This document shows positions 27,001-30,000 of a stretch of 43,137 nt of DNA, piece after piece. This DNA is from a virus. Its lineage: Duplodnaviria; Heunggongvirae; Uroviricota; Caudoviricetes. A program made the position numbers. The stretch lies in the IMG/VR virus record IMGVR_UViG_2721755646_000007; one strand, given 5' to 3'. The stretch's first letter is position 1. The number at the start of each line of letters is the position of its first letter.

Positions 27001-30000
27001 ACTGAAGATGACCGCTGAAATTGTCTGTTCGGTGTTCCGTGTCCCGGCCTACAAGATTGGCGTGGGACAACCGCCTTCCAGTGACAACGTGGAGGCGCTG
27101 GAGCAGCAGTATTATTCCCAGTGCCTGCAGACGCTGATTGAGTCCATTGAACTGTTACTGGATGAGGCGCTGGAAACGGGGGAAAACGAGAGTACAGAAT
27201 TTGATGTCACCACGCTGCTGAGAATGGACAGTGAGCGGCGCATGAAAACGCTGGGGGATGCGGTGAAAAATACGCTTCTCACGCCCAATGAGGCCCGTAA
27301 ACGGGAGAACCTGCCGCCCCTGGCCGGCGGTGATGCACTGTATCTTCAGCAGCAGAACTACAGTCTGGAGGCGCTGTCCCGTCGTGATGCCCGTGAGGAT
27401 CCGTTCGCGTCTGCCGGGAAAACAGTTTCATCACAGCTGCCTGACGGCGCATCTGACGGTAATAAGGCAATCAGTGAAACAGAGCATGATGCGGTGAAAG
27501 CGATGTTCAGGGGGGATACTGAGAAAATGACGGAACGGGAACTGTCCATTATTCGTGCACTGGGAGAAGAATTTTCCACAGTGCTGGCGGATTTACAGCG
27601 CACATTTGAGGAGAAAATAGCCGCGCAGGCACAAACGTTTGAAGAAAAACTGGCTTCTCAGTCTGTGGTATTACAGAAGTGCGTGACGGGTGATGATGTG
27701 CGTCCGATGCTTGAGCAGATGGTGAAAGAGGCAGTGAGCCATATTCCTGTTCCGCGCGACGGTCGTGACTACGATCCGGATGTTCTGCAGAAGGCGGTGA
27801 ATGATGCGGTTGCGAATATTCCGGTACCGGCAGACGGCAAAAGTATCACCCCGGATGATGTGCGTCCGATGCTTGAGCAGATGGTGAAAGAGGCAGTGAG
27901 CCATATTCCTGTTCCGCGCGACGGTCGTGACTACGATCCGGATGTTCTGCAGAAGGCGGTGAATGATGCGGTCGCGAAAATACCGGTACCGGCAGACGGT
28001 AAAAGTATCACTCCGGATGATGTGCATCCGATGCTTGAACAGATGGTGAAGGAGGCGGTAAGCCATATTCCTGTTCCGCGTGATGGTCGTGACTACGATC
28101 CGGATGTTCTGCAGAAGGCGGTTCTGGAGGCGGTGAGTGCCCTGCCGGCTCCGCAGGACGGGCGTGATGCCACGGCACTGGAAATACTCCCCGCCATTGA
28201 CGATCAAAAATCCTTTCCCCGGGGCTCGTATGCCACACACCAGGGTGGACTCTGGCGGGCGTATGAAAAAACGTACGGGATGCGGGGATGGGAATGCCTG
28301 GTTGACGGGGTGGCGGATATTGACGTCAGCATGACGGGTGAACGGTCGTTCTCTGTGGTGGTCCGGCAGAGCAGTGGCCAGCGTACGGAAAAAACATTTT
28401 CCCTGCCGGTGATGCTCTACCGTGGTGTGTTCAGAATCGGCGAAACTTACCACCCCGGCGATACGGTGACGTGGGGGGCTCGTTGTGGCACTGCAACAGT
28501 ATGACCGGTGATAAGCCCGGAGAAGCTCATTCATCAGGCTGGACTCTGGCTGCAAAACGTGGGCGGGATGCAGGAGGTGGAAAGTGACAGCATTACTGAC
28601 ACTGGAAGAAATCAAGGCACATCTGCGTGTTGACCATGACGCGGATGATGAGATGCTGATGGACAAGGTTCGTCAGGCTACCGCCGTGCTGCTGGCCTAC
28701 ATCCAGGGCAGCCGGGATAAAGTGATTAGTGAGGACGGTGAGCTGATCCCTGGTGAGGCATTAACCCGGATGAAGGGGGCTGCCATGCGACTGACCGGGA
28801 TGCTGTACCGGAATCCGGATCTTGCTGAGCGGGAAGACCTCGTGCAGGGGGAACTGCCGTTTTCTGTTTCCGTGCTGATTTACGATTTGCGTTGTCCGAC
28901 GGTGTTATGAGGAGGGGGAATGGCAATATCTGCAGGTCGTCTGACACAGATGATCAGTGTTCTGAACCCGGTGTTAACCCGTAATGCTGCCGGAGAAATG
29001 ACGGAAGAATGGGTGTCATGCGGGAAAATTCATGCGGATATCCGGGGCAGGAGCAGCCGGGAGCGGATGCAGTCCGGTGCGGAAATGGCGCAGGCGGAAA
29101 TCCGCATCTGGGTACGCGGTCAGTCTGGTCGTGAAATCACGGCGGCGTCACGACTTCATGTGCTGAGTGGTCCCTGGCGTGACCATGTCCTGAATGTCGT
29201 CGGGGTCCCGGTTCCGGATGCAACCGGCGGGCGTCTGGAAATTCTCTGTCGGCTGGGAGGGGAAAAATGATCGAAACCCTGCTGGATTTTTCGGGGCTGG
29301 AGGACATCAGCCGCGATTTGCAGCTTCTGAGTGGTGCGGAAAATAACCGGGTGCTGCGTGAGGCAACCCGTGCGGGTGCGAATGTGCTGAAAGAAGAAGT
29401 GGTGTCACGGGCACCGGTACGCAGGGGAAAACTTCGCCGCAATGTGGTGGTCCTTTCCCGGTGCTCCCGCGATGGCGGGATGGAATCCGGTGTGCATATC
29501 CGGGGTGTTAATCCGGACACCGGTAACAGCGATAACACCATGAAGGCGGATAACCCGCGCAATGCTTTCTACTGGCGGTTTGTGGAAATGGGGACCGTGA
29601 ATATGCCACCGCACCCGTTTGTGCGCCCGGCATTTGATGTGCGCAGTGAACAGGCGGCACAGGTGGCGATTGCTCGGATGAACCGGGCCATTGATGAGGT
29701 ACTGAGACGATGACGGAGGCGGATTTGTATCCTCATCTGGCGCATCTTGCCGGCGGGCAGGTGTACCCGTATGTGGTCCCCCTGCTGGATGGCAGGCCGT
29801 CGGTGGCGCTTCCGTGGGTGGTTTTCAGCCTGATTTCATCGGTGTCGGCGGACGTGATGGGCGGGCAGGCGGAGTCCTCAGTGTCGGTGCAGATAGACGT
29901 TTATGCCGGGACTGTGACGCAGGCGCGTCAGATACGTCAGGACGCCCGTGAAGCCATAATGCTGCTGGCCCCGGGATCCGTCAGTGAAATGCAGGACTAT

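Follow-up and report, generated by a model that had tools for sequence, protein, structure and literature searches.

A 162-bp coding repeat beside the portal gene of an Escherichia coli O157:H7 prophage lies in a separate gene that may encode a dispensable fibre

Several described phage proteins offer points of comparison for a repeat-bearing gene that follows the portal gene of an E. coli prophage. Fibritin (wac) of phage T4 and the head fibre gp8.5 of phage phi29, both dispensable, have segmented helical stalks and are encoded among head or neck genes. Elongated repeat stalks that end in a small beta module of the carbohydrate-binding CBM5/12 type occur in BFVD proteins labelled 'Collagen triple helix repeat' or ChiC_BD and in fibres of the Agrobacterium phages 7-7-1 and Milano; these are tail or baseplate proteins whose genes lie in tail modules. 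In the portal of P22, a long helix follows the crown and forms a C-terminal barrel, and lambda PaPa lost its side tail fibres through a 1-nt deletion that shifted the frame of stf. Coding variable-number tandem repeats (VNTRs) in surface proteins of phages and bacteria consist of near-identical in-frame units that vary by whole units and become homogenised. We analysed a 43,137-nucleotide stretch of DNA, hereafter the window (IMG/VR record IMGVR_UViG_2721755646_000007, Caudoviricetes), which is identified by its sequence as a lambdoid prophage of E. coli O157:H7. An earlier note on this DNA had described a near-perfect tandem repeat in a C-terminal extension of the portal protein. Our comparisons place the repeat in a distinct gene downstream, here called ORF2 (open reading frame 2), rather than in the portal proper, and we assign a probability of roughly 60% to the reading that ORF2 encodes a dispensable neck or head fibre whose copy in the window is a pseudogene.

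ORF2 resembles each of these systems in part. As in the collagen and ChiC_BD fibres, an elongated repeat stalk would be followed by a small beta module of the CBM5/12 type, but the stalk of ORF2 is built of helix-plus-PxPxDGxD units, its gene lies between those of the portal and the head-tail connector, and the place of the protein on the virion is a proposed one. With fibritin and gp8.5 it shares a proposed trimeric, segmented helical stalk, a gene position among head or neck functions and an apparently tolerated loss; no sequence similarity of ORF2 to either protein was detected. Fusion to the portal places a long helix after the crown, as in the P22 barrel, although in most relatives this helix belongs to a separate gene, and a repeat stalk and a beta domain, both missing from P22, come after it. 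The likeness to lambda PaPa is that a putative accessory fibre gene has been altered by a single-base indel while the phage is still viable, fused alleles being present in phage 2851; unlike the stf case, which concerns a tail fibre, ORF2 here carries two indels, one joining it to the portal and the other cutting it short. The array also has the near-identical in-frame units, whole-unit polymorphism and homogenisation of the surface-protein VNTRs.

The portal protein proper occupies positions 26165-27526 of the plus strand, corresponding to residues 1-454 of the fused ORF, and profile matches and homology to solved portals identify it as an ordinary HK97-family portal. Pfam Phage_portal (PF04860) matches residues 54-382 with an E value of 5e-81 (272.7 bits, cut-off 39.1), and TIGR01537 (portal_HK97) matches with an E value of 2e-104 (349.5 bits, cut-off 112). 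Its alignment with 9lbn, 8cez and 6tba, which are portals of solved structure, extends through residue 420, and solved homologues are 393-431 amino acids long. Family membership therefore holds for the portal core, and the repeat region is not part of the portal polypeptide in the family at large.

A run of six G residues at 27510-27515 (plus strand) puts the portal in frame with ORF2. The junction was aligned for the window and for FRIK2455, WGPS2, EH1995, Lys8385Vzw and FDAARGOS_293, and its states were tallied in 66 distinct sequences of the ORF2 region from IMG/VR, which come mostly from genomes of Shiga toxin-producing E. coli and are not a random sample. Relatives with a G5 junction have a portal that ends exactly at residue 454, and its TGA stop overlaps the ORF2 start in an ATGA motif whose ATG corresponds to window position 27527. 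The Shiga toxin (Stx) 2a phage WGPS2, the Stx1a phage EH1995 and the induced phage Lys8385Vzw are each annotated with two coding sequences that overlap by 4 nt, namely a 454-amino-acid portal and a second gene starting MTERELSII. Because these split phages carry G5 where the window carries G6, the 'C-terminal extension' is the downstream gene ORF2, joined to the portal by one extra G. Portals of 445-467 amino acids followed by a separate repeat gene are likewise found in 45 of the 66 E. coli sequences, in Hafnia and Halomonas, in Pseudomonas phage PAJU2, in a Rhizobium phage and in two metagenome contigs. The view that the repeat belongs natively to the portal C terminus is therefore not upheld, either by the IMG/VR set or by the unfused relatives checked. 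In the window, the ORF2 equivalent spans 27527-28587 (plus strand; 353 amino acids if repaired), being fused to the portal at its 5' end and frameshifted near its 3' end.

Tandem Repeats Finder, applied to the window, places the array at 27692-28122 on the plus strand, with a period of 162 bp, 2.7 copies (2.66 units), 95% matches, 0% indels and a score of 778, which is far beyond chance. This agrees with the earlier description of about 2.7 near-perfect in-frame copies of a 54-amino-acid module. The array is in frame within the ORF at 26165-28504 (plus strand, 779 amino acids). There are 5 mismatches in 162 nt between copies 1 and 2, leading to a single amino-acid change (N to K), and copy 3 is a close match over its first 107 nt, after which the DNA diverges while a homologous half-unit is still encoded. 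At the protein level, the array consists of six 27-amino-acid units, each a helix plus an IPxPxDGxD motif, and reaches approximately position 28160. Each 54-amino-acid unit thus holds two older sub-units, and a weak sub-repeat of approximately 75-81 bp is also detected inside the array. Modelling of the window sequence gives the unit as helix-loop-helix-loop, with helices of 17 and 13 residues alternating and loops of 12 residues between them. The 162-bp repeat is a pair built from an old 27-amino-acid module, and the pair was duplicated recently.

The earlier note overlooked that the reading frame is broken near the 3' end of the repeat ORF. A second poly-G tract at 28473-28478 (plus strand), within W-G-G codons, has six G residues in the window and seven in intact alleles, such as that of strain FRIK2455 (807 amino acids) in our alignment; G7 is present in 63 of the 66 sequences. 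The resulting -1 frameshift leads to a premature TGA at 28502-28504 (plus strand), as seen in both the ORF list and the intact-allele translation, and replaces the last 39 residues of the terminal domain with 9 unrelated ones. The conserved C-terminal beta domain, which resembles a tandem CBM5/12 module, would span 28163-28587 (plus strand) but is in the correct frame only up to 28472. A distinct domain after the repeats had been proposed with a length of about 120 amino acids; the domain is indeed separate, but it measures approximately 138 amino acids in intact homologues and is cut short here. The RefSeq entry for the identical sequence reads 'phage portal protein, frameshifted' (26165-28587), and a repaired ORF2 would stop at 28585-28587, overlapping the GTG start of the connector gene at 28584. 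In this defective prophage, the copy of ORF2 is almost certainly a pseudogene.

The two G tracts vary among E. coli prophages. The locus occurs at 11,109 places in 5,426 E. coli genomes at large, and the tally of tract states and copy numbers rests on the 66 IMG/VR sequences. Two intact genes (G5 junction, G7 tail) are found in 45 of these and a fused, intact ORF (G6, G7) in 18; the fused and truncated form of the window (G6, G6) is found in 2, and 1 has two genes with a truncated tail (G5, G6).

Copy number varies more widely. Alleles with 0.66, 1.66, 2.66, 3.66, 4.66, 5.66 and 6.66 copies were found, of which 3.66 is the commonest in the IMG/VR set, and differences relative to the window run from -2 to +4 units. 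Phage records have combined portal and ORF2 spans of 2100, 2262, 2424 or 2586 bp, equivalent to 0.66 to 3.66 copies. ORF2 ranges accordingly from 245 amino acids with one unit to 569 with seven. The expectation that such a repeat would be recombinationally unstable and variable in length is borne out by this range of 0.66-6.66 copies in related prophages. To within 1-2 nt, 64 of the 66 sequences differ in length by multiples of the 162-bp unit, as expected for unequal recombination or slippage; of the remaining two, one is a deletion allele lacking 68 bp and the other is of uncertain alignment. In the deletion allele (L047; IMG/VR contig 2534681992_000016), the 68 bp are lost inside the array and ORF2 is frameshifted after 147 amino acids. 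The array therefore shows the whole-unit, in-frame copy polymorphism among close relatives that defines a coding VNTR. Its units also carry array-specific variants, a hallmark of recent unequal exchange and homogenisation within arrays.

AlphaFold2 models were made of a 299-amino-acid homologue and of the window's own ORF2, and the two agree. A long amphipathic N-terminal helix (27527-27679, plus strand; ORF2 residues 3-51) is modelled confidently and is likely a coiled-coil or anchoring segment. It is followed by helix-loop repeats of moderate confidence and then by an all-beta C-terminal domain with a predicted local distance difference test (pLDDT) score of ~95. The stalk is acidic, with a net charge of approximately -13 over 160 amino acids, and the head is near neutral. 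The terminal domain is predicted to be a small antiparallel beta fold that can be superposed on solved chitin-binding domains, and sequence comparison reveals conserved W and Y positions within it. Among viral structures, those nearest to it belong to tail fibre proteins and to proteins that combine collagen repeats with ChiC_BD. The CBM5/12 profile PF02839 matches 21 of 28 family members with E <0.01, the single bit score shown being 24.8, below the cut-off, and a Pfam scan of the window's frameshifted ORF gave no PF02839 match.

Relatives of ORF2 provide a further indication of what the stalk may be. A true collagen (GXY)n stalk replaces or extends the helix-PxPxDG units in P0234, P0254, P0218 and P0163, and Pfam Collagen (PF01391) is matched by 4 of the 28 family members. 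In P0234, the GXY run covers residues 56-226 (~57 triplets) and continues directly from a PMPKDG motif. ORF2 of the window has no G-X-Y runs, only isolated DGxD(G) motifs. Given the collagen stalks of these relatives, the PxPxDGxD(G) motif can be taken as the remnant of a GXY nucleus, and the family has the appearance of a trimeric fibre whose stalk is interchangeable. Many family members also carry a short collagen tail after the beta domain. The Pfam matches TetR_C_35, DUF4244 and FliG_N within the repeat fall below the cut-off and were set aside as helical noise. NCBIfam gave no match for either the repeat or the terminal domain, and a sequence search of ORF2 against solved structures returned only a marginal, uninformative alignment of 29 residues, to an injection-system protein of Anabaena (E 0.42).

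An exhaustive HMMER search with the third repeat of the window and the readable part of the terminal domain as query retrieved 1,998 representative proteins at E <=1e-3 and 1,094 at E <=1e-10. The best 150 representatives have a median length of 346 amino acids and from 0 to ~17 repeat motifs. In 148 of them the protein stands alone; a portal domain is present only in the E. coli cluster and in P0238, and no fusion to the downstream connector was found among the 150. The homologue is a separate gene directly 3' of the portal gene in Hafnia, Halomonas, two metagenome contigs, PAJU2 and the Rhizobium phage, and with the exception of one metagenome contig, whose next gene is unassigned, it lies directly 5' of the gp6-like connector in these six relatives, usually with overlapping stop and start codons. 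Overall, seven unfused relatives were checked, and each has ORF2 placed between the genes for portal and connector. The homologues are named 'hypothetical protein', 'portal protein' or, wrongly, 'gp6-like connector', and in PHROGs the stand-alone form is split between phrog_1289 ('portal protein') and phrog_16748 ('unknown'). ORF2 is not a member of any characterised family. A literature search found no paper on the repeat, the ORF2 gene, a portal-linked chitin-binding domain or the phage 2851 portal.

We hypothesize that ORF2 encodes an accessory fibre, probably a trimer, which would be held near the portal vertex by the coiled coil at its N terminus. The helix-plus-PxPxDGxD units would form a segmented stalk or spacer whose length is set by copy number, and the tandem CBM5/12-like head may bind a glycan-type ligand. 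We favour a place on the outside of the virion, at the neck or head, for a fibre that would be dispensable in the same way as T4 fibritin or the side tail fibres of lambda. A dispensable external fibre would account for the tolerance of fusion, truncation and wide variation in copy number.

Several observations weigh against this fibre, among them the frequency with which ORF2 is fused to the portal. C-terminal portal fusions recur in the 18 fused, intact E. coli sequences, in the deposited genome of phage 2851, whose fused intact (G6, G7) allele encodes 859 amino acids, in YYZ-2008 (861 amino acids) and in the distant relative P0238 (1237 amino acids), where the terminal module is fused to a portal. 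Phage 2851 is reportedly inducible and infectious. The portal of Moraxella phage Mcat9 (L206, 2226-3665; 479 amino acids) ends in a single CBM5/12-like module, YKGVF...GDFVTRNGSLWHC...NWTLAVKKG, which follows the last conserved portal motif (QQQNYSL) after a linker of ~50 residues and has no stalk. In addition, the terminal domain is well conserved over a host range that extends from Halomonas to Rhizobium, which one would not normally expect of a receptor binder with host specificity, and the PF02839 match of an intact homologue reaches 26.7 bits, marginally over the cut-off of 26.2. Both the virion location and the oligomeric state are ones that we infer from sequences and models. The portal fusions, P0238 and Mcat9 fit better with an alternative in which ORF2 is an appendage of the portal crown inside the capsid, acting in trans or in cis, and in which the fusion is a functional variant rather than damage. 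The N-terminal helices would then extend the crown much as the barrel does in P22, while the stalk and terminal domain would reach into the head, and the appendage might hold or sense DNA or organise assembly. In portals of the HK97 family, the C terminus is part of the crown and is located within the capsid, and a true C-terminal extension would therefore point inward; the idea of a surface-exposed portal appendage is thus doubtful as originally worded. The ORF2 gene moreover always abuts the portal gene, often with overlapping stop and start codons. Against an internal position stand the unfused state of 148 of the 150 best representatives, the collagen-type stalks and CBM5/12 heads, which are typical of external phage fibres, and the strong acidity of the stalk (approximately -13 over 160 amino acids). 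Some members, of which P0123 with its extended series of stalk units is an example, are much longer than the capsid interior could accommodate, and both Mcat9 and P0238 derive from prophage or metagenome sequence and are possibly damaged themselves. We therefore regard an internal crown appendage as somewhat unlikely, and the dispensable external fibre is preferred. A broader proposal, which we consider doubtful, is that ORF2 represents a widespread portal-associated class (~2,000 clusters at 50% identity) that docks on the crown either free or tethered, with a poly-G toggle in the E. coli Stx-type phages and a stalk tuned by the VNTR. If this proposal is true, ORF2 would represent an appendage of a new kind, internal or at the portal vertex, whose head is of the glycan-binding type.

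The poly-G tracts themselves permit two other interpretations. Acting as a switch, through phase variation or programmed slippage, they could yield free, portal-tethered or truncated ORF2; both length changes do fall in G runs, both junction states are common, and the ATGA overlap of stop and start means that a -1 shift would join the frames. Conservation of the G runs, however, does not extend beyond the Enterobacteria (they are absent in Halomonas, PAJU2, the Rhizobium phage and the metagenome relatives), and distant relatives write the W-G-G codons without a homopolymer. Runs of G5-G7 are also short for efficient slippage, the tract states are fixed and identical across independent assemblies, and on inspection of the sequence the portal frame contains no canonical X_XXY_YYZ heptamer. 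We rejected programmed frameshifting at the junction because the G runs are unconserved and this slippery heptamer is lacking, and we consider a switch of any kind quite improbable. It is less credible still that the repeat number or the frameshifts are artefacts of assembly or sequencing, a possibility that we hold to be extremely small. Short-read assemblies do break here, such that nearly all of the top 120 protein matches are 'partial' and lie on contigs of ~2-3 kb, and homopolymers are error-prone on some platforms. Yet three independent complete genomes of E. coli O157 match the 1301-bp stretch surrounding the array at 100% identity, which argues that the array, whose possible origin in assembly had been raised at the outset, is not an artefact. 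The array and both G tracts are also identical in these three genomes and in two prophages of one genome, and the fused state occurs in the separately deposited genomes of phages 2851 and YYZ-2008. An assembly artefact was thus rejected, being largely refuted by the identical independent genomes together with the whole-unit differences in 64 of the 66 sequences.

These findings bear on the annotation of many related records. Hundreds of E. coli records call the fused ORF 'phage portal protein', whereas the evidence indicates two genes, the second of which belongs to a large family without an assigned function. Should ORF2 be a fibre of the neck or head that bears a CBM5/12-type head, the attachment of long-tailed Stx1 and Stx2c phages to cells or mucus may be affected by it, and the 162-bp array would then be a natural series of stalk lengths. 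The sequence is a common one that carries annotation already. As markers, the array and the two G tracts make it simple to separate the near-identical lambdoid prophages of O157 strains.

The prophage that carries the array is defective. Window positions 1-33430 are 99.98% identical to one prophage of strain 180-PT54, and a second prophage of that genome matches positions 25500-43137 at 100% identity, apart from 3.9 kb that the window lacks at 33430. This loss cuts the tape-measure ORF (31567-33621) to 684 amino acids and removes gpM, gpL and ant; no gpL, gpM or gpJ follows the tape measure in the window. Instead, the tail region is followed directly, within 33675-42504, by a C40 peptidase gene, the type III secretion system effector genes nleL and espN, and IS2. 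Upstream, a prohead protease-major capsid fusion is predicted at 24016-25953 (plus strand; Pfam Peptidase_S78 plus Phage_capsid), and the gp6-like head-tail connector is assigned to 28584-28910 (plus strand) by Pfam Phage_connect_1 and by the annotation of the identical record. The head module runs in the order terminase large subunit (TerL), major capsid protein, small ORF, portal, ORF2 and connector, as it does in Hafnia, Halomonas and PAJU2, and the order of TerL, capsid and portal is kept wherever ORF2 was found in Gammaproteobacteria.

Some minor features accompany these genes. The small ORF before the portal (25998-26219) encodes 73 amino acids, has no family match and shares 55 nt with the start of the portal gene; ORFs of 63-83 amino acids also precede the portal in Halomonas, PAJU2, Mcat9 and one metagenome relative. 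Several relatives with an ORF2-family gene carry glycosylation-type genes between the connector and tail genes (PAJU2, L207 4531-6474; L201 7588-8933; L202 5920-8186), which resemble sialyltransferase, MptE/Maf, hexapeptide transferase and methyltransferase genes and hint at virion glycosylation beside a CBM-type protein. Elsewhere in the window, identity to the annotation of NZ_CP015832 identifies three prophage tRNA genes (Ile, Arg, Arg) at 14211-14460, 3' of the Q antiterminator, and a gene for a SASA-family carbohydrate esterase at 15544-17394.

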